Source of the DNA: Myxococcales bacterium | GTDB lineage: Bacteria; Myxococcota_A; Polyangia; Nannocystales; Nannocystaceae | NCBI GenBank assembly: GCA_020633335.1 | Contig: JACKDU010000002.1 | Span: 442,730-506,729 of the forward strand | Length of the DNA stretch: 64,000 nucleotides | Direction of reading: 5' to 3' | Shown: piece after piece, positions 12,354 to 64,000 of the stretch | Position numbering within the stretch: the stretch's first letter is position 1 | Layout of the letters: every line of letters begins with the position of its first letter | Notes under the pieces: model-generated | Databases searched by the model: none | The model's input: the letters and a program-made list of their open reading frames with translations, nothing else | What the model was told of the DNA's origin: nothing | Program-made: the position numbers and the translations under genes

Positions 12354-12549
12354 CGTCGCTCTTCCTCGCTCCTCGTAGCCGCCTTCGAGGCTAGGGGTCA
12401 GGATACCAGAACCCGGACGTGTTACTAGTGTCGCGGCGGCCGCGCACACATCACCCGACACCGCGACGGGTCCCTGCCCGCTCGCGCTGCGGACCCCTGC
12501 TCCGGTGGCGCCCGGTCCTGCCCCAGAGGTCAGGTGACGCCCGCGCCGC

Positions 12550-19013: not shown

Positions 19014-19133
19014 GTCAGATAAGGTAGTTATAATACTTGGACAGCCAACGCTATCGACGAGCGACACAGCGCGCAGGAATTGACGAGATCTTCCTCACTC
19101 GTCGTTCGACGATGCTGACGCGCCGAGCGCCGG

Positions 19134-21682: not shown

Positions 21683-22942
21683 ATGCAGACCCCGACCCTC
21701 AGAACCCCGACGCGCCCGCGCGATTTTGCGCTCGCCGCTCCCCTCCTCCTCCTCCTCGCCTGCACCGGCGGGAGCGCGACCTCGGAGTCCGAGGGCGCGA
21801 CCGACTCTGACTCCGACACCGGGGCGGCGACCGACTCCGACACCGAGGGCGCGCCGACGATCCTCGAGCTAGACGGCCCCTGCCAGGGCCCGGTCGCCGA
21901 TCCGAGCCGCCTCGCGGTGATCACCACCGACTTCGTCAACGGCTCGCTCAGCGTCGCCGACGCGGCCGCGATGAGCGTCAGCCTCGACGTCGCGGCCGCG
22001 ACCACCGACACCCTGGCGACCTGGGCCGACGGCCGCCTCTACCTGGTCCATCGCTTCGGCTTCAACGCGATCGACGTCCTCGACGGCGCCTCCTGGGCGA
22101 AGGTGGGGAGCCACATGGTCAGCGTCGACGGGGTCGCCGAGCCCAACCCGCAGACGCTGGTGATCGGCGACGACGGCCTCGCCTACCTCACGCTCTTCGG
22201 CGCGCCCGAGGTGCAGGTCCTCGACCTCGCGGGCGGCGGCGGCGAGGTCGGGACGATCGACCTCAGCGCCTTCGCCGACGACGACGGCAACCCCGAGGCC
22301 GGGGTGGCGATCGCCTGCGGCTCGACCCTCATCGTCGGGATCCAGCGCCTCGATCCGAGCTTCACGCCGGTCGACCAGAGCTACCTCGTCGCGCTCGACA
22401 TGACCCTGGGGACAGCCATCGACCTCGACCCGAGCGCCGACGGGATCCAGGGGCTCGCGCTCGCCGGCTCCTGGCCCCGGCAGATCCGGGTCGACCCGGC
22501 CGATCCGAGCGGCGAGACGATCCTGGTGCTGACCAGCGGGATCGAGCGGATCCACCTGCCGAGCGCGACCCGCGAGTGGGCGCTCGCGGCCGCCGATCTC
22601 GAGGCCGCCGGGATCGCCGGCTTCGCCCCCCAGGCCTTCGTCACGGACGCAGCCGGCGAGGTCGCCTACCTCGCGGCCAGCGACGGCGAGTGGCCGGCGG
22701 CGGCGGTCTTCCGGGCCGGCCTCGACGGCCGGGCGCCGACCGCCCCGGAGAAGGTGATCAGCGGGATCGCCACCCACGAGAAGGTCCTCGAGCGGATCGG
22801 CGACCGCCTCTGGGTCGGCGACACGACCCCGGGCGCCAGCGGCCTCCGGGTCTGGGACCTCGCCGCCGGCGCGCCGACCGAGGTCACCGCCGCCCCCCTC
22901 GACACCGGCCTCCCGCCCTACACCCTCCTGCCGATCCCCTGA
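21683..22942 (+). CDS. lipoprotein of unknown function, paralog 1 (beta-rich, probable propeller-like); in the B12-uptake operon
   Basis: Lipobox 'APLLLLLACTGG', then an acidic S/D/T linker. Shares blocks and C-terminus ('...DTGLPPYTLLPIP') with the next gene ('...ATGLAPYALSVVP'). An 8-bp gap separates it from the next gene. Confidence 0.7.
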   Translation: MQTPTLRTPTRPRDFALAAPLLLLLACTGGSATSESEGATDSDSDTGAATDSDTEGAPTILELDGPCQGPVADPSRLAVITTDFVNGSLSVADAAAMSVSLDVAAATTDTLATWADGRLYLVHRFGFNAIDVLDGASWAKVGSHMVSVDGVAEPNPQTLVIGDDGLAYLTLFGAPEVQVLDLAGGGGEVGTIDLSAFADDDGNPEAGVAIACGSTLIVGIQRLDPSFTPVDQSYLVALDMTLGTAIDLDPSADGIQGLALAGSWPRQIRVDPADPSGETILVLTSGIERIHLPSATREWALAAADLEAAGIAGFAPQAFVTDAAGEVAYLAASDGEWPAAAVFRAGLDGRAPTAPEKVISGIATHEKVLERIGDRLWVGDTTPGASGLRVWDLAAGAPTEVTAAPLDTGLPPYTLLPIP

Positions 22943-22949
22943 GGCGCCG

Positions 22950-24161
22950 ATGCCCCGCCGACCCCTCGCCGCCCTCCTGGCGCTCGTAGCCTGCGACTCG
23001 GCGCCGCCGCCGATCGATCCGCCGGACCAGGGTCCGCCGCCGATCGTCGGCGCGCCGGCCCTCGATCGGCCCTGCGAGGGGCCGCCGGAGGCCCCCCGCT
23101 TCCTCGCGGTGACGACCACCGACTTCACCACGGGGGCGCTCTCGATCGTCGACGTCGAGGCGATGGCGTCGACGCCAGACGTCGCCCTCGCCAGCTCCGA
23201 CGCCAAGCCCTTCGCCCACGAGGGCCTCCTCTACGTGCTCCACCGCTACCAGCTCGACGCCCTCGACGTCATCGATCCGGCGGCCGAGTGGGCGCTGGTC
23301 GACTCCCAGGCGATCGATCACGAGGGCCCCGGGAGCGCCAACCCGCACGCGATCGCCTTCGCCGACGACGGCCTCGCCTACGTCTCCTTCTTCGGCGCGC
23401 CGGCGATCGCCGTCTACGACCTCGGCGATCCCGCGCACCCGCGGCGGAGCGGGACGATCGCCCTCGGCGCGCTCGCGGACGCCGACGGCAACCCCGAGGC
23501 CTCGCTGGCGATCGCCTGCGGCGACGCGCTCTTCGTCACCCTCGAGCGCCTCGACCGCGACGCCGCCTTCGCCCCGCGCGAGGACCACGACGAGGTCGCG
23601 GTGATCGACCGCGCGAGCGGCCGCCTCCACGACCTCGACGCCGACGCGCCGGGGATCCAGGGGATCGAGCTCCGGGGGCTCTGGGCCCGGCAATGGCGCC
23701 GCGATCCCGACGACCCGCGCGGGACGACGCTGCTGGTCCTCACCGAGGGGATCGAGCGCCTCGATCTCGCGGCCGGCGAGAGCACCTGGCTGGTCGCGCC
23801 GGCGCTCCTCGAGGGGCTCGGGATCCGCTCCTACCTCCAGCCGCAGGCCTTCGCCCTCCACCCGGCGAGCGGCGCGATCTACCTCGCTAGCTACCGCGAG
23901 GACTTCTCCGAGGTGGTCGTCCACCGCGTCGATCCGGCGGCGGAGCCCGAGGCTGCGGCGGTCGAGGTCCTCAGCGGCCTGATGACCAGCGAGCAGACCC
24001 TCGAGGTGATCGGCGACACCCTCTGGATCGGCGACCGCACGCCGGGCGCCGCCGGGATCCGGGCCTACGCGATCGACCCGAGCAGCGGCGCCCTGAGCCC
24101 GCGCCTGGACGCCCCCCTCGCCACCGGGCTCGCGCCCTACGCCCTGAGTGTGGTCCCCTGA
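22950..24161 (+). CDS. lipoprotein of unknown function, paralog 2 (tandem duplicate of 21683..22942)
   Basis: Lipobox 'LAALLALVACDS'. Shared blocks are 'PCEGPPEAPRFLAVTTTDFTTGALSIVD' versus 'PCQGPVADPSRLAVITTDFVNGSLSVAD', 'DGLAYVSFFGAP' versus 'DGLAYLTLFGAP', and 'ADADGNPEASLAIACGDALFV' versus 'ADDDGNPEAGVAIACGSTLIV'. Confidence 0.7.
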   Translation: MPRRPLAALLALVACDSAPPPIDPPDQGPPPIVGAPALDRPCEGPPEAPRFLAVTTTDFTTGALSIVDVEAMASTPDVALASSDAKPFAHEGLLYVLHRYQLDALDVIDPAAEWALVDSQAIDHEGPGSANPHAIAFADDGLAYVSFFGAPAIAVYDLGDPAHPRRSGTIALGALADADGNPEASLAIACGDALFVTLERLDRDAAFAPREDHDEVAVIDRASGRLHDLDADAPGIQGIELRGLWARQWRRDPDDPRGTTLLVLTEGIERLDLAAGESTWLVAPALLEGLGIRSYLQPQAFALHPASGAIYLASYREDFSEVVVHRVDPAAEPEAAAVEVLSGLMTSEQTLEVIGDTLWIGDRTPGAAGIRAYAIDPSSGALSPRLDAPLATGLAPYALSVVP

Positions 24162-27675: not shown

Positions 27676-28445
27676 GCGGCCATGTCCTTCGGGTTGCGGG
27701 CGCCGTCAGGCGCCGACGGTCGTCGAGTGTAGCTACAAGCGACGCCCTCGCCCGGCCCTTTTTCACAGCCTTTTTGGCGAAGAAGGCTACAGATTTGTCT
27801 CACGGGGCGACGTCCCCGAGGGCGCCGCCAGACGATGTGACATCCCTCAGAGCATCCCATAAAGACATGTCCATAGCAACATGTCTCTAAATACATGGTC
27901 CGCTGAGCATCGCTCAAGACCGCCCTGCGCGCCCCTGCGTGCGGGCGAAAGCGTCAGCGAGGGATCCCGACCCCAGCGGCGATCGGGTTCGCGTGGGGGG
28001 ACGCCTGCGATCGCGCGGCGCGTCCTCGCCAGCGACCCCGCAGCCGGCCGCGCAGCCGGCCGCGGGAGCGCGCTGCGCATGATCTCCCAGAGGACAAGAC
28101 CACAACATATTGGGTAGCCATGCGCGATCGATCCACGACATCTTGGGGCGCGTCGCGATCGCCCTCGCCCGCGCTCGATCACGCGGCGAGCGATCAAGTG
28201 CCAGTGTCAGATTACGTGCACATACATCAGGGCGAATGCGCGCCTGAACAGACGTGCATAGACCACTACGAAAGGCCCCGAACCATCGTTATGATGGTCG
28301 CCCTCTTCACCCCAGGTCGTGATCGAGACCGTGCCGAGCAACGCATATCACCGGCGCAGCCGCGCCACCTCTGCCCCGGCTTCCCGACGGCCCGGACGAG
28401 CGAGCGCTCGCCCGGCGCCTGGTCCCCGACAAGGAGTAGGACACT

Positions 28446-29475
28446 GATGCGACGCGCACTGCCTGCGCTTCTGCCTGCGCTTCTCACGACGCTGCTGGCC
28501 GGCCCCCTCGCCTGCGGCGGCGTGCCCGACGAGGACGAGACCAACTCCAGCGGCGAGCTCAGCGAGGGCCGCGAGCTCGCGGCGATCGAGGAGTCAGACT
28601 CCAACCTGGTCCTCGCGCTCCTCGAGAGCGACGGCAACGCCGACCCGGACGCCGATCCCGACGCCGACGCCGACGCCGCCGAGAGCGCGGGCGACGACGA
28701 GGCCGCCGCCGACTTCGTCCCCCGGGCCTGCGTCCACTCGCTCGACGAGAAGCGCCCGCGGATCACCAAGTCCGCCCAGCTCCTCACCAAGCGGATCATC
28801 CGTCACACGGCCAAGCGCATGGGGGTCCACGAGGACTTCCGAAAGCTCCTCGCCCTCATCGCCCTCCGCGAGTCGAGCTACCAGTCGGGCCTCGTCCACC
28901 GCCTCTCACCTGACCTAAACGCCAGCTACTCGAGCTGGCGGAAGATGTCGGCGCGCTACGAGGACAACCCGCACGCGAGCGACCCGACCCTCTGGCAGAC
29001 CTACGGCCTCTTCGGGATGAACTCGAACTACTTCACGCTCCTCTGGGATCAGAAGGCCGATCCCCGGGTGCTCTGCGATCCGATCGTCGACATCATCCTC
29101 TACCGGCGGGCGGCCGAGCGCGCGCTCCGGAAGATGCTGAGCGGGCCGATCCGCTGCAAGGGACAGGACGGCGACACCTTCGACATCACCGTCGAGCCGA
29201 CCTGGGGGAACATCCACCGCGCGGTCTCCGGCGGGAAGATCTGTCCCTCGAAGCATGAGGAGCGGGCGGCGACGATGCGCAAGTACTTCGACGCGCGGGC
29301 CCGGCGGGTCGGCATCGACCCGAACGCTCGGGTCTCGCTCAAGATGCTCGGCAAGGAGCCCGGCCGCGGCCTCGACGGCGAGACCTGGGAGGGCCAGGAG
29401 GCGATGGTCACCGGCCTCTGGAAGGAGATCGACGCCGGCGCGGACGACAAGCGCGCCGCCGCCGAGGACGAGTAG
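28446..29475 (+). CDS. lipoprotein with SLT-like lytic-transglycosylase motifs (putative cell-wall hydrolase)
   Basis: ATG 28446 follows 'aggagtagg'. Signal 'MRRALPALLPALLTTLLAGPLACGG'. Acidic repeat 'DADPDADPDADADAAESAGDDE'. 'LLALIALRESSYQSGLV...YGLFGMNSNYF' resembles the E-S...GLMQ catalytic region of SLT domains. Confidence 0.5.
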
Positions 29476-42109: not shown

Positions 42110-43045
42110 ATGAGCTTGACCGTCTCGTCCGCCGTCACCCACGCTCTCCCCGCGCTCGCGGACGGGCCGACCATCGATCTGACGGAGGTCCAGAGCGACC
42201 TCGAGGCGGTCGCCCGCGACGTCGTCGCCGCCCGCCGCCGCGGCCTCCGGCTCCTCGACGCGGTCGACGATCCAGCCTTCCCCAGCCTCCGCACCTTCCA
42301 CCTCGGGATCCGCGACGCCCTCTTCCTCGAGATCCCGAGCGAGCTCGATCCCTGGATTCAGGCGGTCACCGACGGGCCCGCGGCGGTCGAGGGCGCGGCC
42401 GTCGATCACCTCCAGCGCATGCTCGTCGGCGCCGCCCAGGGGCGCGGGACCTCGGACGTCAGCGAGCTGGCCGAGCTCCAGCAGGCGCTCGCCGAGCTCC
42501 TCGTCTTTGAGGCGCTGCGCCTCCAGCTCCTGGTCATCGCCCTCGGCAGCGAGGAGTACGAGACCGTCGGCGGCGAGGAGGCCGACCTCGACGCGATCGC
42601 CTGGGCCGAGGTCGAGGCGCTCCTTCACCGCCCCGAGCTCGATGATCCCGAGGTCCGCCCCCTCCACCTCCTGCGGGCGACCGCCAGCGTCTCGCTCGCC
42701 CGCGACGCCGCCGAGCGGGCCGAGGCCCTCCGCCTCGCTGGCCCCGATCTCCGCGACGAGGTGCGGATGCGAGCCCGCCTCCGCGCGGCCCTCCGCGAGC
42801 TCCGCCTCGCCGAGTCGGTGCTCCTCGAGAACGCGCTCGCCTCGCTCCTCGGCGGCGAGCGCCGCGAGCTCACGGATCTCCAGGCCGAGCGCCCGCTCGC
42901 GCTCGACGGCCTCTCGCGGCAGGCGATGGATCAGCGGGTCTCGCGGGGTCGGCGTGCGCTGACCCGGGCCAAGCAGGGCTGGCCGCAGCGCCGCCGCCCG
43001 GCGCTCTTTGACCTCCTCCGCCGGCCGAACGCGGCCTCGCTTTGA
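42110..43045 (+). CDS. hypothetical alpha-helical protein
   Basis: 311-aa ORF with balanced composition (L/E/A-rich helices). Co-directional with the downstream lspA. No recognisable motif. Confidence 0.4.
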   Translation: MSLTVSSAVTHALPALADGPTIDLTEVQSDLEAVARDVVAARRRGLRLLDAVDDPAFPSLRTFHLGIRDALFLEIPSELDPWIQAVTDGPAAVEGAAVDHLQRMLVGAAQGRGTSDVSELAELQQALAELLVFEALRLQLLVIALGSEEYETVGGEEADLDAIAWAEVEALLHRPELDDPEVRPLHLLRATASVSLARDAAERAEALRLAGPDLRDEVRMRARLRAALRELRLAESVLLENALASLLGGERRELTDLQAERPLALDGLSRQAMDQRVSRGRRALTRAKQGWPQRRRPALFDLLRRPNAASL

Positions 43046-51277: not shown

Positions 51278-52536
51278 GGAGACCTGGCCCAAGGGCAATC
51301 TTCCGCCCAGGCCAGCGCTCGGTCGGGACCAGGCGCTTGCTCGGGCTCGGGCTCGCGGCAGCGCTCGCGGTCGGGTGCGCTCCCGACGAGCCGGTGCGCG
51401 TGACCCCGTCGATCCTCTACTTCGACGCCGCCCACCCCTCACGCACCCTGACGCTCCGCAACGCCGGCGCCTCCGAGGTCGCGCTCGCGCGCGTCCGCCT
51501 CGACACCCGCACCCCCGACTGGGGCTCCTTCGTCCTCACCGACGCGGCGCTCCCCCGGAGCGTGCCCGCGGGCGGCGAGGTCGAGCTCCACCTCCGCGCC
51601 GACACCAAGCACTTCGTCAGCGAGCACGCCCACGGCGAGCCCCCCCACTACCGCCGGGGCCGCAGCCGCCTCCTCCTCCAGGCGGATGGCGCGAGGGCGA
51701 TCGAGCTCCGCTTCGAGCCCCCGCCGACCCCGGGCCTCGCCCTCCAGCTCGGTCGCCTCGGGACCCTCGCGGCCGCGCTCGCCCTCCTCGTCGCCCTCCG
51801 CCGGCGACGGCCCGCGAGCGCGCCGGTCCCCTGGGCCCTCCTCGTCGCCGTGGCGATCCTGCCCTGGGGCCCACCGCTCTGCGTCGACCAGGTCGGCGCA
51901 CGCCTCGGCCGCGCTGCCCTCGAGCAGTGCGCGCTCGGCCACGGAGGCGCGCCCCTGGTCCTCGCCCCGACCGAGCTCGGCGTCGGCCTCGGCCTCGCTC
52001 TCCTCCTCCTGGTCGACCTCGCCCGCTGGGGCGCGGCGGCCCGCGACTCGGCGCCCGCGAGCGCCCTCCGCAGCGGGGCCCGCTCGCTCCTCGCCGACCT
52101 CGCGCTCCTCCTCGCGATCGCGCCGGCCCTCGCCGGCGCCGACGTCCTCGCCGTCGACGCCCTGGCCCTCGCCCAGGAGGACGCCTGGGGGGTCATCCGC
52201 CACCCGATCGCCGCCCTCCTCGCCCTCGCCGCGGCCGCCCTCCGGGGCTCCGCTGCCTCGCGCGTCGGCGCCGACGATCTCGGGATCGCGGCCCTCCTCA
52301 CGCTCGTCTTCTTCGGCGGCTGGACCCCCCCGCCCGGGCTCCCCTTCACCGCCCTTCCCCATGGGCTGATGCTCGCGCTCGGCGTCGTCCTCACCCTGGG
52401 CAAGAGCGCCGCGATCGCCCTCGGGATCGCCGCGCTCCGCCGCCGCTTGCCAGCGACGCTGGCCGCCCGGGCGCTCGGGCCCCTCCTCACGCTGGCACTC
52501 CTCACACTCGTCGTGACCGCCCTCGTTCGCAGCTGA
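51274..52536 (+). CDS. hypothetical polytopic membrane protein with lipoprotein-like N-terminal soluble domain
   Basis: 'RRLLGLGLAAALAVGCAPDE' signal/lipobox, a ~110-aa domain, then six or more A/L-rich TM helices. Confidence 0.45.
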   Translation: MRRPGPRAIFRPGQRSVGTRRLLGLGLAAALAVGCAPDEPVRVTPSILYFDAAHPSRTLTLRNAGASEVALARVRLDTRTPDWGSFVLTDAALPRSVPAGGEVELHLRADTKHFVSEHAHGEPPHYRRGRSRLLLQADGARAIELRFEPPPTPGLALQLGRLGTLAAALALLVALRRRRPASAPVPWALLVAVAILPWGPPLCVDQVGARLGRAALEQCALGHGGAPLVLAPTELGVGLGLALLLLVDLARWGAAARDSAPASALRSGARSLLADLALLLAIAPALAGADVLAVDALALAQEDAWGVIRHPIAALLALAAAALRGSAASRVGADDLGIAALLTLVFFGGWTPPPGLPFTALPHGLMLALGVVLTLGKSAAIALGIAALRRRLPATLAARALGPLLTLALLTLVVTALVRS

Positions 52537-54271: not shown

Positions 54272-54490
54272 ATGACCGCCAAGCTCCGCAAATTCCGCTA
54301 CGAGTTCCCGCCGACCGAGGCCCGCTTCATCGCCGCGCCGACGGCCGATGCGGCCGTCCTCTACATCCGCCGGGCCTACCCCCACAACACCCGCGACGTC
54401 CTCGCAACCCTCCGCGAGATTCCCCGCTGGCCGGAATTCTGGAAGACGCTCGATCATCAGGGGATGGTCCTGCCACCGAGCGACGACTAG
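54272..54490 (+). CDS. small hypothetical protein (72 aa)
   Basis: ATG is 11 bp after the pduO stop. No motif. Confidence 0.3.
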   Translation: MTAKLRKFRYEFPPTEARFIAAPTADAAVLYIRRAYPHNTRDVLATLREIPRWPEFWKTLDHQGMVLPPSDD

Positions 54491-54747
54491 CGCCTGGCGC
54501 CGCGAGCTTCGCCCGCGCTTCGCCGACATCGAAGTAGCTCGGTCGCGCCAGAGCCGTCGCAGACCTGTGAACTCGCCTTCACAGGGGCCGATGCGAAATC
54601 GGGTGCACGCCTGGAATTGGCTTTCGCACGCGTTTTCGGGGGCCTCTGGGCTTGAGCTAGGCCGACGCCCTGCGCTACAGAGCATCCCGCGGCGGCTGGC
54701 CGCCGCCCGCCACTCTTTCCTCCTCTGCCAGCGCGATTCGACGGCCT

Positions 54748-55425
54748 ATGACCACCGCCAAGAGAGCAGCATTCTTCCGCGCCGAGGGCGTCCTCCTGAG
54801 CCGCGGCGTGCTCGCTGCGACCGCCTACTACGCGGCCAACGCCCAGAAGTTCAGCGAGCGAGCCCTGCGACTCGGGGTCGTCGCCCTCTCGGCGCCCCTC
54901 CAGGGCCTCCTCGGGCAGAACGATCGCACCCTCGCCAACCGCCTCGCCTTCCTCGCCGCCCGCGGGATGAGCGAGGACCGGCTCGCCGAGCTCGGGGAGG
55001 AGTACGCCGAGGACATGCTGAAGGACAAGATCCTCGACCAGGGGGTCGAGCTGATCAAGCGCGCCCGCGCCGAGGGCCACCGGATCGTCGTCCTCAGCGA
55101 CAACATCGCCCAGATCATGGAGCCGCTCCTGCAGCACCTCCCGAAGATCGACGACCTCGTGTGCAACCACCTCGAGATCACCGACGGCGAGGCGACCGGC
55201 AAGCTCCTCGATCCGGTGATCGGCAGCCACGGCGACGGCAAGTGGGTGCAGGGCTACGCCGAGCGCCACGGCCTCGATCTCCGGGCCTGCGCGGCCTACG
55301 GCGCCCACGGGACCGACCTCCTCCTCCTCGCAGGAGTCGGTCGTCCCTGCGCCGTCAACCCGGACTTTACGCTCCGCCGCTCCGCCCGTGAGGCAGAGTG
55401 GCCGGTGATCGACTACCAGGAGTGA
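54748..55425 (+). CDS. HAD-IB family hydrolase-like protein (motif I apparently degenerate)
   Basis: 'AAFFRAEGVLLS' sits where HAD-IB has 'AFFDFDGTL'. 'IVVLSDNIAQIMEP' and 'KWVQGYAERHGLDL...AYGAHGTDLLLL' resemble HAD motifs II-IV. Confidence 0.6.
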   Translation: MTTAKRAAFFRAEGVLLSRGVLAATAYYAANAQKFSERALRLGVVALSAPLQGLLGQNDRTLANRLAFLAARGMSEDRLAELGEEYAEDMLKDKILDQGVELIKRARAEGHRIVVLSDNIAQIMEPLLQHLPKIDDLVCNHLEITDGEATGKLLDPVIGSHGDGKWVQGYAERHGLDLRACAAYGAHGTDLLLLAGVGRPCAVNPDFTLRRSAREAEWPVIDYQE

Positions 55426-55457
55426 GCGCCCCGGCGCGAGGAGGAGGAGGAGGAAGC

Positions 55458-57161
55458 ATGCGACGCCTATCGATCCACGAGAGCTACGCCGGCAAACACG
55501 TCCTGCTGACGGGGGCCTCGGGCTTCCTCGGCAAGGTCTGGCTGACGATGGCGCTCGAGGGGCTCCCGGAGATCGCCAAGATCTACGTGCTCCTCCGCAA
55601 GAAGGCGCTGCGACCGGCGCGTGACCGCTTCGAGCGGATCGTCGCGACCTCGCCGGCCTTCAAGCCGCTCCACGAGCGCTACGGCCGCGACCTCGCCCGC
55701 TTCATCAACGAGCGGATCGAGGTCGTCGACGGCGACATCTCGTCGCCCGGCCTCGGCCTCGACCCCGAGGTCGCCGCCCGCCTCCACCGCGACGTCGACC
55801 TCGTGATCAACTGCGCGGGCCTCGTCGACTTCGACCCCGATCTCCGCGACGCGCTGACGACCAACGTCGACGGCACCCTCCACGTCGCCTCGTTCATGGA
55901 GCGCTGTCAGAAGGCCGCGCTCCTCCACATCTCGACCTGCTACGTCGCCGGCACCCGCAACGGGGTGATCGACGAGACCCTGATCGCCGACTACGCGCCG
56001 AACGGCGAGCCCTTCGACGCGGCCGCCGAGCTCGCGGCCGCCCGCGCGCGGATCGACGAGATCATCGCCGAGCACGACGGCCCGGCGAAGGAGGCCGAGA
56101 TCCACCTCGACGCGCTCAAGCACATCCGCGAGCGCCGCCTCGACCCCGACAACCCGACCCTGGTCCGCAACATCTCCCGCCGGATCAAGCGCCAGTCGAT
56201 CAAGGACGCGATGATCGAGGAGGGCCAGTCGCGGGCCCAACGCTGGGGCTGGACCAACATCTACACCTACTCCAAGAGCCTCGCGGAGTCGGTGCTGGTC
56301 CCCTACCAGGGCAAGTTCCGCTTCTCGCTGCTGCGGCCGGCGATCGTCGAGTCGTCGCTCGCCTACCCCTTCCCGGGGTGGAACCAGGGCTTCAACACCT
56401 CGGGGCCGCTCTCCTACATGCTCGCCGGCTGGCTCCGCGAGCTGCCGATGCGCAAGGACAACCCCTTCGACATCATCCCGGTCGACTACGTGTGCACGGG
56501 GATGACGATCGCCGGCGCCGCCCTCCTCCAGGGCTGCCACGAGACCGTCTATCAGTGCGGGACCTCCGACAAGAACCGCCTCTCGATCGACCGCGCCTGC
56601 GACCTCACCGCGCTCGCCCACCGCAAGCACCTCCGCCGCAAGGGCGACACGGTCGTCGACCGGGTGATCCTCGCGCGCTGGGACGGGGTCCGGGCCGACG
56701 ACATCGACCACACCCTCTCGGTCCCCAACCTCCGCCGCTTCACCCAGGGCGTCGCCCGGACGATGCGCGAGCTCCCGCGGCGCTGGCCGAAGGCGATCCG
56801 GCGGCGGGCCGAGAAGGTGGCCGAGCGCGCCGACAAGATCGACGAGTCCCTCGACACGATCGAGCACCTCATCGACCTCTACCTCCCCTTCATCCACGAC
56901 AACACCTTCGTCTTCCGGACGGACAACCTCCTCTCGTACGACATCGTCGAGCCCGAGCACCGCTGGGATCCGAAGGATCTCGACTGGCGCCACTACTGGA
57001 TCAACGTCCACATCCCCGGGCTCCGGAAGTGGTGCTACCCGCTCTTTGAGGGCAAGACCCCGGAGTCCTACAAGCCGCGCTACAAGTTCTCGCTGAGCGA
57101 GGGCGCGGAGACCAAGAGCGCCCCGGCGAGCGACGCTGAGGCCCAAGGAGAGGTCGGCTAG
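55458..57161 (+). CDS. fatty acyl-CoA/ACP reductase (male-sterility NAD_binding_4 domain + C-terminal FAR_C-like domain)
   Basis: Strong RBS 'aggaggaggaggaagc' before ATG 55458. 'VLLTGASGFLGKVWL' and 'YTYSKSLAE' are the Rossmann motif and the YxxxK of the FAR family. Confidence 0.8.
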   Translation: MRRLSIHESYAGKHVLLTGASGFLGKVWLTMALEGLPEIAKIYVLLRKKALRPARDRFERIVATSPAFKPLHERYGRDLARFINERIEVVDGDISSPGLGLDPEVAARLHRDVDLVINCAGLVDFDPDLRDALTTNVDGTLHVASFMERCQKAALLHISTCYVAGTRNGVIDETLIADYAPNGEPFDAAAELAAARARIDEIIAEHDGPAKEAEIHLDALKHIRERRLDPDNPTLVRNISRRIKRQSIKDAMIEEGQSRAQRWGWTNIYTYSKSLAESVLVPYQGKFRFSLLRPAIVESSLAYPFPGWNQGFNTSGPLSYMLAGWLRELPMRKDNPFDIIPVDYVCTGMTIAGAALLQGCHETVYQCGTSDKNRLSIDRACDLTALAHRKHLRRKGDTVVDRVILARWDGVRADDIDHTLSVPNLRRFTQGVARTMRELPRRWPKAIRRRAEKVAERADKIDESLDTIEHLIDLYLPFIHDNTFVFRTDNLLSYDIVEPEHRWDPKDLDWRHYWINVHIPGLRKWCYPLFEGKTPESYKPRYKFSLSEGAETKSAPASDAEAQGEVG

Positions 57162-58307
57162 ATGGCAATCTTCCTCACCGGCGCGACCGGCTACATCGGC
57201 TCCTACGTCGCCTCGGGCATCCTCGAGCACTACCCCGACGCCCGCCTCGCCCTCCTGGTCCGGGCGAAGACGCCGGCCGACGCCGAGAAGCGCCTCTGGC
57301 ACTCGATGCAGCTCCACCTCGACTTCGAGCGCTTCATCGACCTCGTCCGCTCGCGCTGCGACATCTACCTCGGCGACCTCACCGAGCCCGAGCTCGGCCT
57401 CGATCACGAGGCCCGCGAGCGCCTGATCCACAGCGCCGACTCCTTCCTCCACATCGCCGCCTCGCTCAACCGGAAGTCGTCGAAGGCCTGCTTCAACGTC
57501 AACCTCCGCGGCACCCTCTCGGTGATCAAGCTCGCCCAGGCGGCCCACGCCCACCACGGGCTCCGCCGCTTCACCGACATCTCGACCGTCGCGGTCGCCG
57601 GCGAGCGCAAGGACGCGGTCGTCACCGAGGACGCGACCATCGACTGGGATCGCTCGGACTACGACCCCTACGCCCGGACCAAGAAGTTCTGCGAGCACAT
57701 GATCCACGAGCTCCTGCCGGACGTGGACGTCAAGGTGTGCCGGCCGAGCATCGTCCTCGGCGACTCGCGCTTCCCGGAGACCACCCAGTTCGACATGGTG
57801 CGGGCCTTCGTGATGCTCGCCAAGATGCCGGTGCTCCCCTTCGATCCCGCCTGGCGGGTCGACATCGTCCCCGCCGACTACGTCTCCAGGGGGATCATCG
57901 CGGCCCACATGCGCGAGCGGCCGAAGTACGACGCCTACAACCTCTCGAGCGGCGCCCTCTCGCTCACCTACCGCGAGATCGTCGACCACATGGAGCGCCA
58001 GGGCCTCGGCGTCCGCCACGTCTTCGCGCCGCGCCTCGAGGGGACCTTCTCGGGGGCGGTCAACGCCCTGATGAGCACCCCGCGCAAGTGGGGGGTCTCG
58101 CTGCCGGCCTCGCTGATGAAGGTCTTCCTCCCCTACCTGACCTTCAACACCGTCTTCGACAACTCCCGGGTGATCGACGAGCTCGGCGAGGCGCCGCGGC
58201 CCTTCACCGACTACGCCCTCCCGCTCTTCCGCTTCGCCAGCGAGGGCGGCTTCTCCTACCCCTACAAGCCCTGGCCCGGCGCGGTCTCGCCGCGCAAGGT
58301 CGCCTGA
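57162..58307 (+). CDS. thioester-reductase/NAD_binding_4 family reductase
   Basis: Starts 1 bp after the FAR stop. '[14 protein letters not shown]' and 'YARTKKFCE' (YxxxK) are characteristic of the family. Confidence 0.75.
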
Positions 58308-58320
58308 GGCGGAGCCCGCG

Positions 58321-59796
58321 ATGACCAAGGCCCCGGCCAAGAAGAAGAGCCTCTGGGATCGGCTCAAGGACACCGTCGATCCTGACCGCGCGCTGATGGC
58401 GGTGACCGGGTCGTTCATCGAGGCGGTCGCGGTCAAGCGCGCCCTCGACGTCGACCAGGAGCGCTGGGCGCCCGGCAAGCCGCTCAAGCTCCTCTACGCC
58501 GGCTACGTCGGCACCCGCAACACCGGCGCCGACGTCCGGGTCGAGGAGATGATCCGGCAGATCCGCCACGTCGTCGGCGACGAGCACCTCGAGCAGACGA
58601 TCATGACCGTCGATCCCGAGCTCAGCGCCGGGTACTTCAAGACGGTCCACCAGATCCAGATGCCGGCGGTCTTCCCCCGCTTCCTCTTTGAGGAGGTGCC
58701 GAAGCGCCACGGCGTCATCGCCTGCGAAGGCTCGATGTTCAAGTCGAAGTTCGCGAGCGCGCTGACCACCTTCATGGCCGGCGCCCTCGGCTTCGCCAAC
58801 GCCGAGGACAAGCTCAGCGTCGGCTACGGCGCCGAGGCCGGGGCGATGATCCCGGCGCTCCAGGACTTCGTCCGCAAGCACTGCTCGAAGTCGCTGGTGA
58901 TCTGCCGCAACGTGCCCTCCCGCGGGGTCCTCGGCGATCTCGGGGTCCGCACGAGCGCGGGCACGGACACCGCCTGGACCTTCGACCCCGCGCCGCTCAG
59001 CCGCGGCGCCCACCTCCTCCGCCAGGCCGGCTGGGACGGCAAGAAGAAGGTCCTCGCGCTCTGCCCGATCAACCCCTTCTGGTGGCCGGTCAAGCCCGAC
59101 CTCGCCAAGCTCGCGGCCCTCAAGTTCGGCGGCCAGTACAAGCTCGAGCACTACAAGTCGTTCTACTTCCACGCGAACTCGGAGAAGATCGACCGCAAGC
59201 TCGAGACCTACATCCAGGCCTTCGCCGACGCGACCAACGCGTTCATGGAGGAGCGGAGCGACGTCTTCCCGATCCTCGTCGGCATGGAGCAGCTCGACCG
59301 CCGCTCCTGCGAGATGGTCGCGCCCCTCCTCGACCACGGCGCGCCCCTCTTCATCTCCGACGAGCACAACATGTACGACATGGTCTCGGTGCTCCGGAAT
59401 TGCGCGATGATGGTCTCGTCGCGCTTCCACGCGATCGTCACCTCGATGCCCGGCCTCGTCGCCTCGGGCGGGGTGACGATGGACGAGCGGATCCGCAACC
59501 TGATGAACGACCGCGGCCACCCCGACCTCTTCCTCGAGGTCGACGAGGAGGACCTCGGCGACAAGATCCTGGCGATGCTCCGCCGCCTCTACGACGAGCG
59601 CGAGGGGCTGGCCGCCGACATCGGCCGGGTGATCCCGCAGCAGCTCGCGCTCATGGGGCAGATGGGGATCGACTTCATGGACGAGCTCTGCCGGGTCTAC
59701 CCCGAGTTCCCCCGCCGCGACCTCCCACGGACCTGGGAGGCCCACCTGCCGCCGCTGCCCCCTGCGGTCCAGCAGCTCATGGAGCGCTACGGATGA
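58321..59796 (+). CDS. polysaccharide pyruvyl transferase family protein (CsaB/WcaK-like fold)
   Basis: 'KLLYAGYVGTRNTGADVRVEEMIRQI' resembles the PS_pyruv_trans N-terminal 'GYyGxxNxGDeai' block, and 'MVSSRFHAIV' the conserved RxH block. Confidence 0.55.
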   Translation: MTKAPAKKKSLWDRLKDTVDPDRALMAVTGSFIEAVAVKRALDVDQERWAPGKPLKLLYAGYVGTRNTGADVRVEEMIRQIRHVVGDEHLEQTIMTVDPELSAGYFKTVHQIQMPAVFPRFLFEEVPKRHGVIACEGSMFKSKFASALTTFMAGALGFANAEDKLSVGYGAEAGAMIPALQDFVRKHCSKSLVICRNVPSRGVLGDLGVRTSAGTDTAWTFDPAPLSRGAHLLRQAGWDGKKKVLALCPINPFWWPVKPDLAKLAALKFGGQYKLEHYKSFYFHANSEKIDRKLETYIQAFADATNAFMEERSDVFPILVGMEQLDRRSCEMVAPLLDHGAPLFISDEHNMYDMVSVLRNCAMMVSSRFHAIVTSMPGLVASGGVTMDERIRNLMNDRGHPDLFLEVDEEDLGDKILAMLRRLYDEREGLAADIGRVIPQQLALMGQMGIDFMDELCRVYPEFPRRDLPRTWEAHLPPLPPAVQQLMERYG

Positions 59797-61427
59797 GCTT
59801 CATCGACACCATCTTCGAGTCCCTGCGGGCCGCCGGCGATCGGCCGGCGCTGGTCGAGATCCACGGCAAGGAGCGCAAGACCGCGGCCGCCAGCGAGCTC
59901 CTCGGGCTCGCCGCCCACGTCCGCGGCTTCCTCAAGGCCGCCGGGGTGAAGCCCGGCGACCGGGTCGCGCTCTTCGCCCCCAACTCGATCCGCTGGGTCG
60001 CCTGCGACCTCGGGATCCTCGCGGAGGGCGGGATCGTCGTCCCCCTCTACGCCCGCCAGGATCCCAAGGAGCTCGCGGTGATGACCCGCGACTGCGCGCC
60101 GGTGCTCCTCATCGCCGCGACCCAGGAGCTCGCCGACGCGATCGCCGAGGCCTGGCCGGAGCACGGCCAGATCGCGCTCTTCGACGAGGTCTTCGCCGCC
60201 GAGCCCCTCGCCGCCCCGCTCCACGATCGCGGCGCCGACGATCCGGTCACGCTGATCTACACCTCGGGGACCAGCGGCGAGCCCAAGGGCGTGATCACCA
60301 CCCGGGCCAACGTCGACTACATGATCCCGCAGACGGCCGCGAGCCTCGGCGAGATCACCGGCTCGCGCGGCGCCCCGGACAAGGTCTTCCACTACCTCCC
60401 CTTCTGCTTCGCCGGGTCGCGGATCATGCTCTGGACCCAGCTCCACCGCGGGAACCCGCTGATGATGTCCAGCGACCTGACCAACCTGGTCCAGGAGATG
60501 GGCACCGCGGATCCCCACTACTACCTCAACGTCCCGGCGCTCCTCGAGCGGGTCAAGACCGGGGTCTACAACAAGCTCCGCGAGCGCGGCGGCTTCGTCT
60601 TCACGATCTACGCCAAGGGGGTCGCCGGCGCGCGGGCGATCATCGACGGCAAGGCCGGCCTCGGCGATCGCCTCTTCGCCGCCCTCGCCGGCAAGCTGGT
60701 CTTCCCCAAGATCAAGGCGCAGATCGGCCCCAGCCTCGAGTTCCTGATCTGCGGCTCGGCGCCGCTCTCCGAGGACACTCAGCGCTGGTTCGAGATCATC
60801 GGCGTCCCGGTCTACCAGGTCTACGGCCTCACCGAGACCACGGCGATCGTGACGATGGACAAGCCCGGCCAGGCCGTCCCCGGCCGGGTCGGCCACGCGC
60901 TCCCTGGCCTTGAGCTCAGGCTCTCTGACGAGGGCGAGCTCCTGATCCGCGGGCCCAACATCTTCGCCGGCTACTGGAACAAGGCCGAGGCGACCGCCGA
61001 GACCCTCCAGAGCGGGTGGATGCACACCGGCGATCAGGCCGAGGTCGACGCCCAGGGCAACTACAAGATCATCGGACGGGTGAAGAACATCCTGGTCCCC
61101 GAGTCGGGCCACAACATCGCCCCCGAGCCGATCGAGCAGAAGCTCCTGGAGCACCTCCCCGGCGCCGAGCAGGCGGTGCTGATCGGCCACGCCCGCCCCT
61201 ACCTGACGGCGATCGTCACCGGCAAGGTCGACGCCGCGGCGATCCAGGCGGCGATCGACAGGGTCAACGCCGAGGTCCCGCACTACCGCAAGATCCGCAA
61301 GTACCTCCACGTCCCCGAGCCGCTGACGATCGAGAGCGGCCTCCTCACCGCCAACCAGAAGCTCCGGCGGCGGGTGATCGAGAAGCACTTCCTCGCCGAG
61401 CTCGATCGGCTCTACGCCTCGTCATGA
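59793..61427 (+). CDS. long-chain fatty acid-CoA/AMP ligase (AMP-dependent synthetase)
   Basis: ATG overlaps the upstream stop (ATGA). 'LIYTSGTSGEPKGV' is the AMP-binding P-loop. Motifs 'YGLTETT' and 'GWMHTGD' are also present. Confidence 0.85.
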   Translation: MSFIDTIFESLRAAGDRPALVEIHGKERKTAAASELLGLAAHVRGFLKAAGVKPGDRVALFAPNSIRWVACDLGILAEGGIVVPLYARQDPKELAVMTRDCAPVLLIAATQELADAIAEAWPEHGQIALFDEVFAAEPLAAPLHDRGADDPVTLIYTSGTSGEPKGVITTRANVDYMIPQTAASLGEITGSRGAPDKVFHYLPFCFAGSRIMLWTQLHRGNPLMMSSDLTNLVQEMGTADPHYYLNVPALLERVKTGVYNKLRERGGFVFTIYAKGVAGARAIIDGKAGLGDRLFAALAGKLVFPKIKAQIGPSLEFLICGSAPLSEDTQRWFEIIGVPVYQVYGLTETTAIVTMDKPGQAVPGRVGHALPGLELRLSDEGELLIRGPNIFAGYWNKAEATAETLQSGWMHTGDQAEVDAQGNYKIIGRVKNILVPESGHNIAPEPIEQKLLEHLPGAEQAVLIGHARPYLTAIVTGKVDAAAIQAAIDRVNAEVPHYRKIRKYLHVPEPLTIESGLLTANQKLRRRVIEKHFLAELDRLYASS

Positions 61428-62200
61428 TCGACTTCTCCGAAAGCGACGGCGTCGGCGAGCTGGTCCTCCGCGCCGAGCCCTGCAACGAGATCGGCACCGC
61501 GATGGTCGCCGCCCTCGAGGGCTTCCTGGACGGGCTCGACGTCGACCGGATCCACACCCTGATCCTGCGCTCGTCGGTGCGCGGGGGCTTCTGCGCCGGC
61601 GCCGACCTCCGCGAGCTCCAGGCCGGCCTCGCCTCGCGCCCGGCGGCCGAGCACGAACCCGCCCTCCGGGCCTTCCTCGACCGGATCCACGCGGTCATGG
61701 ATCGCCTCGACATGCTCCCGGTCACCACCGTGGGCGTGATCCACGGGGTCTGCTTCGGCGGCGGCTTCGAGCTCGCGCTCACCTGCGACGTGCTCATCGC
61801 CGAGAAGAGCGCCCGCTTCTGCTTCCCCGAGCTCCGCCTCGGGATCATCCCGGGCTTCGGCGGGATCCCCCGCCTCCGCCGCGAGGTCGGCGACGCGGTG
61901 ATCCGCGACCTCCTCCTCTCCGGCCGCTCGATCTCCGGCAAGCGCGCCCAGGCCCTCGGCCTCTGCTCGCAGGTCGTCGGCCGCGGCGAGGGCCTCGAGG
62001 CCGCCCGCGCGCTCGCCAGCCAGTCGGGCAAGTTCGACGACTACGCCCGCCGCGCCTGCAAGAAGTTCATCAAGAAGCTCCCGGCCGAGGAGCTCGCCCA
62101 GGAGAAGGAGCTCTTCATCGAGCTCGCGCTCCGGCCCCCCCTCCTCGCCGCCCTCACCAAGTTCGTCGAGAGCACCGACCTCAGGCCCTACCTCCCATGA
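61424..62200 (+). CDS. enoyl-CoA hydratase/isomerase (crotonase) family protein
   Basis: ATGA overlap with the upstream stop. 'GFCAGADLREL' and 'GVCFGGGFELALTCD' are the crotonase oxyanion-hole motifs. Confidence 0.85.
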   Translation: MIDFSESDGVGELVLRAEPCNEIGTAMVAALEGFLDGLDVDRIHTLILRSSVRGGFCAGADLRELQAGLASRPAAEHEPALRAFLDRIHAVMDRLDMLPVTTVGVIHGVCFGGGFELALTCDVLIAEKSARFCFPELRLGIIPGFGGIPRLRREVGDAVIRDLLLSGRSISGKRAQALGLCSQVVGRGEGLEAARALASQSGKFDDYARRACKKFIKKLPAEELAQEKELFIELALRPPLLAALTKFVESTDLRPYLP

Positions 62201-62433
62201 GCAGCGACACCGTCCAGAAACTGATGGCCCTCGCGGCCCGCCAATTCAAGGCCGAGCTCGACAAGCTCCGGCCCGAGGACGACCTCTTCGAGGCCCTCGG
62301 CATCGACTCCTTCCAGGCGGTCGAGCTGATCTCCGAGCTCGAGGACGAATTCGACGTCGAGCTCCCCGACTACGAGCTCCAGGGCGTCAAGACCTTCGCG
62401 GCGCTCGCGGCCAAGATCGACAAGAGGCGCTGA
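62197..62433 (+). CDS. acyl carrier protein (stand-alone)
   Basis: 78 aa. 'LGIDSFQAVELISELEDEF' contains the DS(L/F) phosphopantetheine attachment site. ATGA overlaps on both sides. Confidence 0.75.
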   Translation: MSSDTVQKLMALAARQFKAELDKLRPEDDLFEALGIDSFQAVELISELEDEFDVELPDYELQGVKTFAALAAKIDKRR

Positions 62434-64000
62434 TGCTCGACCTCTCCCGCGTGCAGAGCATCGGCGAGGCGCTCGCCGACGCGACCACCACCTTCAAGTC
62501 GCGCGTCGCCCTCATCGAGGTCGACCGCCACCGCGAGAAGGCCCGCTACACCTTCGCCGAGCTCCGCCGCCTGGCGGAGGGCGTCGCCGCCTACATCCAG
62601 GAGCGCGGCTTCGAGCCCGGCGATCGCTGCGCGATCCTGATGCAGAACCAGTCGAAGTGGCTGATCTCGGCGACCGGCGCCCTCTGGGCCGGCGCGACCC
62701 TGGTCCCCCTCGACTACAAGCTCACCGCCAGCGAGCAGCTCGACCTCATCGCCCACTGCCAGCCGCGGGTGCTGATCACCGAGGCCTCGACCTGGGCCCG
62801 CCTCCGCGAGGAGGGGCGCCCCGAGCTCTTCGAGCGCACCCTCGTGATGGTCACCGAGGCCCCCGACGACATGGCGATCGCGCCCGCCGTCCACTGGCAG
62901 ACCGGCGCCGCCGAGCGCTTCCAGATGCACCCGCGCGGCCGCGATCAGCTCGCCTGCATCGTCTACTCCTCGGGCACCGGCGGCACCCCCAAGGGGTGCA
63001 TGCTCAGCCACGCCAACTACCTCGCGCAGGCCGAGGTGCTCGGCAAGCTCTTCCCGATGGAGGAGGGCGATCGCTTCTTCTCGGTGCTGCCGACCAACCA
63101 CGCGATCGACTTCATGTGCGGCTTCCTCCTCTCGCTGATGATGGGCGGGACGGTGGTCCACCAGCGCACCCTGCGACCGGCCTACCTCGCGTCGACGATG
63201 CAGCGCTACGGGATCACCCAGATCGCGCTGGTGCCGACGATCCTCAAGAACCTCGAGAAGAAGCTCCGCGAGCGCCTCGACGACCTCCCGAAGTGGCAGC
63301 GCCTGGTGATCGACGGGCTCCTCGACATCAACGAGGCGGCGACCCGCCGGCGGCCGAACCACCCGCTCTCGTCGAAGATCCTCAAGCCGCTCCACGATCA
63401 ATTCGGCGGCAAGCTCCGCTTCATCTTCGCCGGCGGCGCCTTCATCGAGCGGAAGACCGCCGACTTCTTCAACCGGATCGGGATCCCGGTGGTGATCGGC
63501 TACGGCCTCACCGAGGCCGGCACCGTCCTCACGGTCAACGATCTCAAGCCCTACCGCGGCGACACGGTCGGCAAGCCGGTCGACGGGACGGAGATCGAGA
63601 TCCGCAGCCCCAACGAGGCCGGGATCGGCGAGGTCTGGGCCCGCGGGCCGACCGTCTTCCAGGGCTACCTCGAGGCCCCCGAGCTCACCGAGGAGGCGCT
63701 CGTCGACGGCTGGCTGCGGACCGGCGACCTCGGGGTGATCGACGCCTCCGGCCACCTCAAGCTGGTCGGCCGGGCGAAGAACATGATCGTCACCGAGGGC
63801 GGCAAGAACGTCTACCCCGAGGACATCGAGGCGCTCCTCGGCGACCTCGACGGCTGCGAGGAGCACGCCGTCTACGCCGCCAACTACATCTGGCCGGCGG
63901 CGACGATGGTCGGCGAGCGCCTCGTCCTGGTGCTCCGGCCGAAGCGCGAGGCCTCTCCCGGCCAGAGCTCGGCCGCCGACGAGGCGATCGCCGCGCTCCG
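62433..64000 (+). CDS. AMP-dependent synthetase/ligase (second acyl-AMP/CoA ligase), 5' partial, continues beyond the window
   Basis: ATG 62433 overlaps the ACP stop. 'IVYSSGTGGTPKGCMLSH', 'GYGLTEAG' and 'GWLRTGDLG' are AMP-binding motifs. The frame stays open to the window end. Confidence 0.8.
   Translation, partial: MLDLSRVQSIGEALADATTTFKSRVALIEVDRHREKARYTFAELRRLAEGVAAYIQERGFEPGDRCAILMQNQSKWLISATGALWAGATLVPLDYKLTASEQLDLIAHCQPRVLITEASTWARLREEGRPELFERTLVMVTEAPDDMAIAPAVHWQTGAAERFQMHPRGRDQLACIVYSSGTGGTPKGCMLSHANYLAQAEVLGKLFPMEEGDRFFSVLPTNHAIDFMCGFLLSLMMGGTVVHQRTLRPAYLASTMQRYGITQIALVPTILKNLEKKLRERLDDLPKWQRLVIDGLLDINEAATRRRPNHPLSSKILKPLHDQFGGKLRFIFAGGAFIERKTADFFNRIGIPVVIGYGLTEAGTVLTVNDLKPYRGDTVGKPVDGTEIEIRSPNEAGIGEVWARGPTVFQGYLEAPELTEEALVDGWLRTGDLGVIDASGHLKLVGRAKNMIVTEGGKNVYPEDIEALLGDLDGCEEHAVYAANYIWPAATMVGERLVLVLRPKREASPGQSSAADEAIAAL

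Follow-up and report, generated by a model that had tools for sequence, protein, structure and literature searches.

A conserved operon that joins a pyruvyl-transferase-like gene to fatty acyl reductase and ligase genes, probably for a modified lipid

Gene organisation of the locus

We analysed a 64,000-nucleotide stretch of a Myxococcales bacterium genome of the family Nannocystaceae (the window; assembly GCA_020633335.1, contig JACKDU010000002.1) with a focus on eight genes that start at 54.7 kb and run past its end (Table 1). They encode a HAD-like protein, a fatty acyl reductase (FAR), a stand-alone thioester reductase (TR), a polysaccharide-pyruvyl-transferase-like protein (PYR), an acyl-CoA/AMP ligase (L1), a crotonase-fold hydratase (ECH), an acyl carrier protein (ACP) and a second ligase (L2). 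Together with two further genes found in relatives, they form a conserved operon that very probably serves the synthesis of a fatty-alcohol-derived lipid carrying a phosphoenolpyruvate (PEP)- or pyruvyl-type modification.

An earlier note, written from the sequence of the window, had described eight co-directional and tightly joined genes. This was borne out: all lie on the + strand, have about 0.98 G+C at third codon positions (GC3) and are joined by overlaps or gaps of 0–32 nt. Since the window has a G+C content of about 71%, spurious long open reading frames (ORFs) are common, and gene starts were set with a GC3 log-odds start picker and by inspecting the junctions themselves. Between 54.7 kb and the end of the window, GC3 was 0.95–1.00 in the proposed frames versus 0.4–0.75 in the other frames. 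Long antisense ORFs, such as the one at 55467–58487 (1006 aa), were dismissed as shadows, because GC3 is high only in the proposed + strand frames. Nor did we trust the L1-ECH and ECH-ACP 'fusions' suggested by some stop-to-stop ORFs.

The HAD/FAR spacer measures 32 nt and contains a GAGGAGGAGGAGGAGG run; the purine run GAGGAGGAGGAGGAGGAAGC (55438–55457) abuts the FAR start codon and forms an unusually long Shine-Dalgarno-like repeat. FAR and TR meet without a gap (TAGATG), while 13 nt separate TR from PYR. The PYR/L1, L1/ECH and ECH/ACP junctions are ATGA overlaps, and ACP and L2 share one base (TGATG).

Table 1. Positions of the operon genes and of the preceding intergenic region in the window
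Feature	Position	Strand	Size and remarks
Probable operon promoter region, intergenic	54491-54747	+	257 nt; sole sizeable gap before the packed genes
HAD-like	54748-55425	+	225 aa; HAD-IB-like
FAR	55458-57161	+	567 aa; fatty acyl-CoA/ACP reductase
TR	57162-58307	+	381 aa; stand-alone thioester reductase
PYR	58321-59796	+	491 aa; polysaccharide-pyruvyl-transferase-like
L1	59793-61427	+	544 aa; acyl-CoA/AMP ligase with AMP-binding_C_3 tail
ECH	61424-62200	+	258 aa; crotonase-fold enoyl-thioester hydratase
ACP	62197-62433	+	78 aa; stand-alone acyl carrier protein
L2	62433 to beyond 64000	+	522 of ~570-575 aa inside the window; second acyl-AMP/CoA ligase

Downstream end and conservation of the operon

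The downstream end was deduced from a related locus (L002), whose PYR is 85% identical to that of the window and has the same upstream neighbours. Its cluster proteins are 74–90% identical to those of the window, and its 574-aa L2 shares 81% identity with the L2 of the window. In L002, L2 is followed by a DAGK_cat/YegS_C lipid kinase, then by a PF01553 PlsC-type acyltransferase with the motifs N-H-x4-D and F-P-E-x-x-R-T, and then by an unrelated FG-GAP protein. The expectation of a downstream acyltransferase, voiced in the earlier note, thus came true in the relatives, which carry a lipid kinase in addition; in more distant ones, a TetR regulator is added downstream. Counting the kinase and acyltransferase genes, the conserved operon has ten genes plus an optional regulator, and its first eight fall within the window.

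We then scanned one genome per species and obtained at least 583 stretches with a PYR relative, the best 80 of which were analysed. Gene families were obtained by clustering gene calls, followed by a hidden Markov model search of all six-frame ORFs with eleven cluster models. All genes of a cluster share one strand and, in full, follow the order HAD-FAR-TR-PYR-L1-ECH-ACP-L2-kinase-acyltransferase-(TetR). Among the 61 loci with at least 4.5 kb of upstream sequence, HAD was present in 52, FAR in 54 and TR in 56. Downstream, where 55 loci offer at least 7.5 kb, we found L1 (38), ECH (38), ACP (36), L2 (38), the kinase (35), the acyltransferase (29) and TetR (15). A near-complete set occurs in 30 of the 48 loci having both flanks. 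For two loci (L083 and L085), independent gene calls with precomputed Pfam labels show the same cluster. Because dozens of species representatives, spread over several phyla, share this order on one strand, the arrangement goes far beyond chance, and mere adjacency was rejected as an explanation.

The closest species representatives are Nannocystis or other Nannocystaceae genomes, with a PYR identity of 81–86%. Nannocystis exedens, N. pusilla, N. punicea and Paraliomyxa miuraensis are among the hosts, as are Polyangiales and Sandaracinaceae. Beyond these, the cluster was found in two Bdellovibrionota metagenome-assembled genomes (MAGs; 41–45% G+C) and in MAGs labelled Planctomycetota, Acidimicrobiia and Terriglobia. 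Across phyla, PYR (52–86% identity) and TR (51–86%) are the best-conserved proteins. The cluster is therefore larger, and far more widespread, than is visible from the window alone.

Several variants were observed. In some Nannocystaceae, HAD-FAR-TR-PYR forms a four-gene module apart from the rest. L1 is absent from 13 otherwise similar clusters, and L085 represents a minimal form, HAD-FAR-TR-PYR-ECH-L2-kinase-TetR. In one group of related genomes, HAD-FAR-TR is split from PYR by a gene for a 522-aa SIR2_2-domain protein (at 7210–8778 in L026 and 6065–7633 in L031; also in L032–L035) together with several small ORFs. The cyanobacterial form (L066, 4145–17547; L062, 7643–14547) retains only TR-PYR-L1 and lacks ECH and the kinase. 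Its neighbours are a fusion of FAAL with a fatty-acid desaturase (889 aa), a NAD_binding_4 reductase with TubC_N docking domain and a Rieske protein, followed in L066 by a lanthipeptide synthetase of the LanM type. This variant looks like a specialised-metabolite cluster around a TR-PYR-L1 core.

Reductases, ligases and carrier protein

Pfam and NCBIfam searches recovered every domain that the earlier note had named, with two qualifications detailed below: PYR scores just under the PF04230 gathering threshold, and the FAR of the window has no PF03015 match. FAR itself matches PF07993 (E = 5.5e-54), and its best solved relative is a fatty acyl-CoA reductase (7eoz, E = 2.2e-41). The motifs Y-x-x-x-K (YTYSK) and STCYVAG are conserved. 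While no PF03015 Sterile (FAR_C) domain was detected in the window copy at E ≤ 0.01, it was found in 36 of 44 FAR orthologues at the same threshold (best 1.3e-10); the sole bit score seen, for the FAR of L078, is 34.4 against a gathering score of 35.4.

TR matches PF07993 as well (E = 1.2e-41). It also matches TIGR01746 (E = 1.2e-36), with 126.8 bits against a cut-off of 213 that was made for domains of non-ribosomal peptide synthetase (NRPS) and polyketide synthase (PKS) proteins. Its best solved relative is the myxalamid thioester reductase MxaA (4u7w, E = 5e-19), and Y-x-x-x-K (YARTK) is conserved. MxaA takes a thioester down to the primary alcohol.

Both ligases keep the core adenylation motifs. 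L1 matches PF00501 (E = 2e-60) and PF23562 (E = 3e-8), with FadD11 as the best NCBIfam match, far under its cut-off; L2 matches PF00501 (E = 9e-72). ECH matches PF00378 (E = 3.9e-31), and its oxyanion hole GF-AGADL and the catalytic Glu in GGGFELAL and FPELRLG are at least 90% conserved in 38 orthologues. The small ACP matches PF00550 (E = 9e-15), has a conserved phosphopantetheine site L-G-I-D-S and is translationally coupled, with this DS motif, to L2. The ACP-tethered logic of activation, modification and reduction that had been suggested for these genes is reasonable. We rejected the reading in which the reductases are ordinary sugar epimerases and the ligases housekeeping FadD enzymes: PF07993 outscores PF01370, the best solved relatives of the reductases are 7eoz and MxaA, and every NCBIfam score of the ligases falls far under the equivalog cut-offs.

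The HAD-like protein departs from its family. It matches PF12710 (E = 1.7e-22), but the Pfam match begins only at residue 38. In the window copy, F-F-R-A-E-G stands in place of the D-x-D of motif I, and motif IV is G-A-H-G-T-D. All orthologues with a called N-terminus (L010, L011, L013, L016, L029, L031, L037, L046, L048, L052, L056, L065 and L072) have F-R-(V/A/F/L)-E-G at motif I, that is, R-x-E in place of D-x-D. The D-x-D with a nucleophilic Asp that marks HAD subfamily IB phosphatases was found neither in the window copy nor in these orthologues. Since the catalytic Asp-x-Asp is replaced, the protein is probably not an active phosphatase; it resembles a pseudo-phosphatase that has been conserved, or a HAD fold put to another use. 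In L078, a Terriglobia MAG, the HAD and FAR genes are fused.

PYR belongs to a diverged subfamily in lipid contexts

PYR is identical to NCBI entry H6711_06915, a 'hypothetical protein' of a 'Myxococcales bacterium' MAG. It scores 24.3 bits against PF04230 (gathering score 25.3), and its relatives pass with 33–60 bits. The match to TIGR03609 (CsaB) has an E-value of 2.6e-9 and lies far under the equivalog cut-off. A phmmer search with PYR among 1.84 billion representative proteins returned 678 sequences at E ≤ 1e-3 and 198 at E ≤ 1e-30. Because relatives are so few among so many representatives, PYR is, judged by its sequence, part of a compact and diverged PF04230 subfamily, apart from the broad mass of glycan pyruvyl transferases.

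No PDB entry was matched by PYR at a significant E-value. The protein has the GT-B-like arrangement of two Rossmann folds known from Pvg1p (5ax7). In a 45-sequence family alignment, R196, R368-x-H370 and R390 are invariant or at least 90% conserved. The PEP-binding residues of CsaB are R148, R306-x-H308 and K328 (PMC10435577). In order and spacing the PYR residues resemble this set, although residue-level alignment to CsaB or Pvg1p reaches only E = 1.

The genomic context argues against a saccharide as acceptor of PYR. This reading is based on three observations. No glycosyltransferase or polysaccharide export gene was found in the operon clusters of the related loci, including the Pfam-annotated L083 and L085. 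Two different sequences (L041 and P0178) are PYR-L1 fusions, and in one metagenomic sequence (P0134) PYR is joined to FAR_C, with a Sterile score of 34.8 bits versus a cut-off of 35.4. Finally, distant members of the subfamily adjoin PKS/NRPS genes (Burkholderia, Tistlia and another genome) or ligases and ACPs. In the Burkholderia locus (L081, 1–13577), the PYR-family gene directly follows a PKS and NRPS-TE pair and precedes an ABC exporter. In Tistlia consotensis and the other genome (L086 and L087, 10001–21450), it lies beside an alpha/beta hydrolase, a glycosyltransferase and an NRPS gene. These three loci are uncharacterised lipopeptide-type clusters.

The earlier note had stated that a pyruvyl-transferase-like protein is part of no described lipid pathway. 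This statement is dated, since tailoring of lipid hydroxyls has been assigned to such proteins in the chitinimine and megapolipeptin clusters: the PS_pyruv_trans homologue ChtnH was assigned to a cyclic acetal, derived from pyruvate, at the C21/C23 diol in the lipid chain of chitinimine, and the megapolipeptin homologue to a PEP-derived three-carbon unit (PMC13291983). Using the Burkholderia relative P0293 as query, we found no Chitinimonas or Paraburkholderia protein among the best 120 matches, so that the tie between PYR and ChtnH stays an analogy.

A possible route from PEP to an ether lipid

For the chemistry of the operon we propose a route in which the three-carbon unit of PEP would become the glycerol backbone of an ether lipid. 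A fatty acid would be loaded on the ACP by L2, or acyl-CoA/ACP would be taken from general metabolism, and FAR would make a fatty alcohol from the acyl thioester. PYR would then move the enolpyruvyl group from PEP onto the alcohol and yield a 2-alkoxyacrylate; an enol ether rather than a ketal is expected here because there is no second hydroxyl for ring closure. The carboxylate would be converted to a thioester by L1, or by L2 where L1 is absent. ECH would hydrate the terminal methylene to a 2-O-alkyl-glyceroyl thioester. Crotonases carry out textbook chemistry of an analogous kind in the hydration of methacrylyl-CoA. Reduction by TR would give 2-O-alkylglycerol, which the lipid kinase would phosphorylate and the acyltransferase might complete to a 1-acyl-2-O-alkyl glycerophospholipid. 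Since the glycerol backbone would stem from PEP, alkyl-dihydroxyacetone-phosphate (alkyl-DHAP) synthase would not be needed.

We put this specific route to an O-alkylglycerol lipid, in which every step is inferred, forward as a tentative possibility. Its wider consequence, which we regard as doubtful, would be an oxygen-independent bacterial ether-lipid synthesis that does without the alkyl-DHAP synthase AGPS: PYR would attach enolpyruvyl from PEP to a fatty alcohol, the ligase, crotonase and thioester reductase would turn the three-carbon unit into the glycerol backbone, and a dedicated alkylglycerol kinase and an acyltransferase would act last.

Several observations nevertheless point to the PEP route. 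TR-PYR-L1 is the core that is kept even in the cyanobacterial variants, and the PYR-L1 fusions fit a ligase that activates the carboxylate introduced by PYR. The minimal L085 keeps FAR, TR, PYR, ECH, one ligase and the kinase, that is, the six activities needed by the route, each used once. In the Pfam-annotated clusters L083 and L085 we found neither an acyl-CoA dehydrogenase nor a 3-hydroxyacyl dehydrogenase; a crotonase without dehydrogenase fits an enoyl group derived from PEP. That ligases and reductases each come in pairs would match a scheme with two carboxylates to reduce. The high conservation of PYR and TR, the joining of FAR_C to PYR in P0134 and the lipid kinase point in the same direction. 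So may, by resemblance, the Arg/Arg-x-His/basic pattern that PYR appears to share with the PEP residues of CsaB, and, by analogy, the kinship of TR to MxaA and the chitinimine and megapolipeptin assignments. In addition, 2-O-monoalkyl glycerol ethers do occur in bacteria (PMC5552659).

Other points weigh against the route. The characterised PF04230 members discussed in the literature consulted form ketals on diols, and we know of no report of a PF04230 enzyme whose reaction ends with the enol ether of a fatty alcohol. The HAD-like protein, whose nucleophile is absent, has no role in the scheme. In the 13 clusters without L1, both ligase tasks would fall to L2 unless the alcohol were made from acyl-CoA/ACP of general metabolism. 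ECH and the kinase are absent from the cyanobacterial variants, so the chemistry of the family is not uniform. Finally, the route predicts 2-O-alkyl lipids, whereas the characterised ether lipids of Myxococcus are 1-O-alkyl (PMC9131029).

Alternative products

The ketal chemistry of the family leads to a different product. ECH together with TR/FAR might produce an alkane-1,3-diol (or 1,2-diol) from an enoyl or 3-hydroxyacyl thioester, and on this diol PYR and PEP would close a cyclic ketal; L1 would activate the ketal carboxylate for transfer or further reduction. A pyruvate-ketal lipid of this kind would match the sole lipid-linked precedent in the family, the six-membered pyruvate acetal on the C21/C23 diol assigned to ChtnH (PMC13291983), and PYR-family genes do occur in PKS/NRPS lipid clusters. 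Moreover, a crotonase combined with a four-electron thioester reductase could yield a terminal 1,3-diol, and the PYR-L1 fusions are also consistent with activation of a ketal carboxylate. However, the enoyl or 3-hydroxyacyl donor calls for a dehydrogenase that the operon lacks, and the conserved lipid kinase, the PlsC-type acyltransferase and the second reductase are left without a clear role. The retention of six activities in L085 is not accounted for, and the tie to the ChtnH subfamily is by analogy, given that P0293 retrieved no Chitinimonas or Paraburkholderia protein among its best 120 matches. We consider a ketal lipid unlikely.

A second alternative builds on the elb genes of Myxococcus xanthus. 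Its elbA–E (MXAN_1531–1527) encode, among others, the HAD-like ElbB, ElbC of unknown function and the NAD-reductase-like ElbE, and ElbD is a fusion of a FAR-like reductase (R), an acyl-CoA synthetase (ACS), an ACP and an AGPAT (PMC9131029, PMC13012113). The genes described here might act as ElbB–E and give 1-O-alkyl ether lipids by the ElbD mechanism, with PYR, ECH, L1 and the kinase as accessories, or with PYR as the counterpart of ElbC. The overlap in parts is considerable: the HAD-like protein would correspond to ElbB, the FAR-like reductase, ACS, ACP and AGPAT functions to the domains of ElbD, and the NAD-dependent epimerase-family reductase to ElbE. PYR is a 'hypothetical protein' at NCBI, much as ElbC is listed as being 'of unknown function' (PMC9131029). 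From sponge symbionts, split elbD variants as well as neighbouring diacylglycerol kinases and glycerol-3-phosphate acyltransferases are reported (10.64898/2026.06.23.733905). Yet the parts were matched to the Elb proteins by published description, not by sequence, and a pyruvyl transferase has no occurrence in the two sponge papers that list Pfam-coloured elb neighbourhoods. Above all, PYR and TR, rather than the ligase, ACP or acyltransferase, are the most conserved and most persistent members, so that PYR does not look accessory. A split elb-type pathway is therefore improbable in our view.

A fatty alcohol, aldehyde or wax ester for storage or signalling, with neither ether nor ketal and with PYR acting elsewhere, for example on a glycan, is very unlikely: FAR plus acyltransferase is the classical wax-ester pair and TetR regulators are common in lipid catabolic and storage operons, but the acyltransferase is PlsC-type (PF01553) and not WS/DGAT, the cluster has no glycosyltransferase or polysaccharide export gene, and PYR, the most conserved member, has its gene coupled in translation to that of L1, with a fusion of the two in two sequences.

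Upstream region and remainder of the window

No sigma-70-like site was matched in the 54491–54747 gap. About 120 nt upstream of the HAD-like gene, CTGGAATTGGCTTTCGCA (54611–54628) resembles the -24 GG/-12 GC elements of a putative sigma-54 promoter, with a spacing one base over consensus. The window also contains rpoN (10869–12461, - strand). A 72-aa ORF (54272–54490) that follows the cobalamin adenosyltransferase gene has a weak coding signal, and its position is kept in six Nannocystis-like loci (family f17).

The remaining window consists of ordinary chromosomal genes, including those for phosphotransferase system (PTS) enzyme I, CTP synthase, biotin carboxylase, a TonB receptor, FabH and CarD, as well as sucC, nadB and the rpoN and cobalamin adenosyltransferase genes mentioned above. 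Six sizeable ORFs with strong GC3 have no Pfam match at E ≤ 1e-5 (17352–19067 on the - strand, 21683–22942, 22950–24161, 28120–29475, 42110–43045 and 51337–52536). Two of them sit between a TonB-dependent receptor gene and genes for a periplasmic binding protein and a FecCD transporter.

Comparison with known systems

Alkyl glycerol ethers of bacteria are widely used environmental biomarkers. How ElbD and its partners act, and hence how the ether bond is formed in aerobic bacteria without alkyl-DHAP synthase, is listed as open in reviews (PMC9131029). The operon provides a concrete candidate for the ether-bond step, and its near-complete form is available in cultured Nannocystis species and in Paraliomyxa. 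PYR has no sugar to act on in the cluster. Whatever the product, it would define a lipid-directed branch of a family known almost only from glycan pyruvylation, and it could bring to light a new origin of a glycerolipid backbone.

The elb genes are the nearest comparison. Each of these two myxobacterial systems brings together a HAD-like protein, an adenylating ligase, an ACP, a PlsC-family acyltransferase and two reductases, one of the FAR type and one of the NAD-dependent epimerase family, and neither has an alkyl-DHAP synthase. In contrast to elb, the ElbD functions are distributed over separate genes here, and PYR, ECH, the second ligase and the lipid kinase come in addition, although the two were compared by description and ElbC could match PYR. 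An annotation of ElbC (MXAN_1529) was not found in the literature searched. If ElbC does belong to the PYR family, the PEP-ether reading would also explain the ether-forming step of elb. No ORF joins the ligase with the acyltransferase or a reductase, in the window or in any related locus, and no fused ElbD-type gene lies beside the more distant PYR relatives in the sampled contexts, where ligases, ACPs and NRPS/PKS genes occur instead. The earlier note had seen here the domain set of the myxobacterial ether-lipid enzyme, split into separate genes. The overlap of parts stands (PMC9131029), whereas a 'split ElbD' is a resemblance by description only.

The eukaryotic and myxobacterial FAR + GNPAT + AGPS pathway likewise starts with a FAR of NAD_binding_4 + Sterile architecture that makes fatty alcohol. 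An AGPS-type FAD-linked oxidase was absent from the Pfam lists of L083 and L085 and from the two genes that follow the acyltransferase in L002, the places where it was looked for.

On the side of PYR, CsaB of Paenibacillus alvei and Pvg1p of Schizosaccharomyces pombe are alike at the level of the PF04230 family and the GT-B fold, and the Arg/Arg-x-His/basic pattern of PYR resembles their PEP-binding residues. They act on sugar acceptors, whereas the strongly diverged PYR subfamily occurs in lipid and NRPS/PKS clusters without glycosyltransferases in the operon setting. Closer in context are ChtnH and the megapolipeptin enzyme, PS_pyruv_trans proteins of Burkholderiales hybrid PKS-NRPS-PUFA (polyunsaturated fatty acid)-synthase lipid clusters, to which the modification of hydroxyls on long fatty chains by a PEP-derived three-carbon unit has been assigned (PMC13291983). 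Genes of the PYR family, too, come after PKS/NRPS genes, namely in Burkholderia, Tistlia and another genome. However, ChtnH and the megapolipeptin enzyme tailor an assembly-line product, with functions proposed from product structure and bioinformatics, whereas PKS and NRPS genes are absent from the operon described here. In the literature searched we found no description of this gene set; the cluster is thus apparently undescribed, with elb the known example among FAR-based bacterial lipid clusters. What distinguishes the operon from such clusters is its pyruvyl-transferase homologue in a lipid context.

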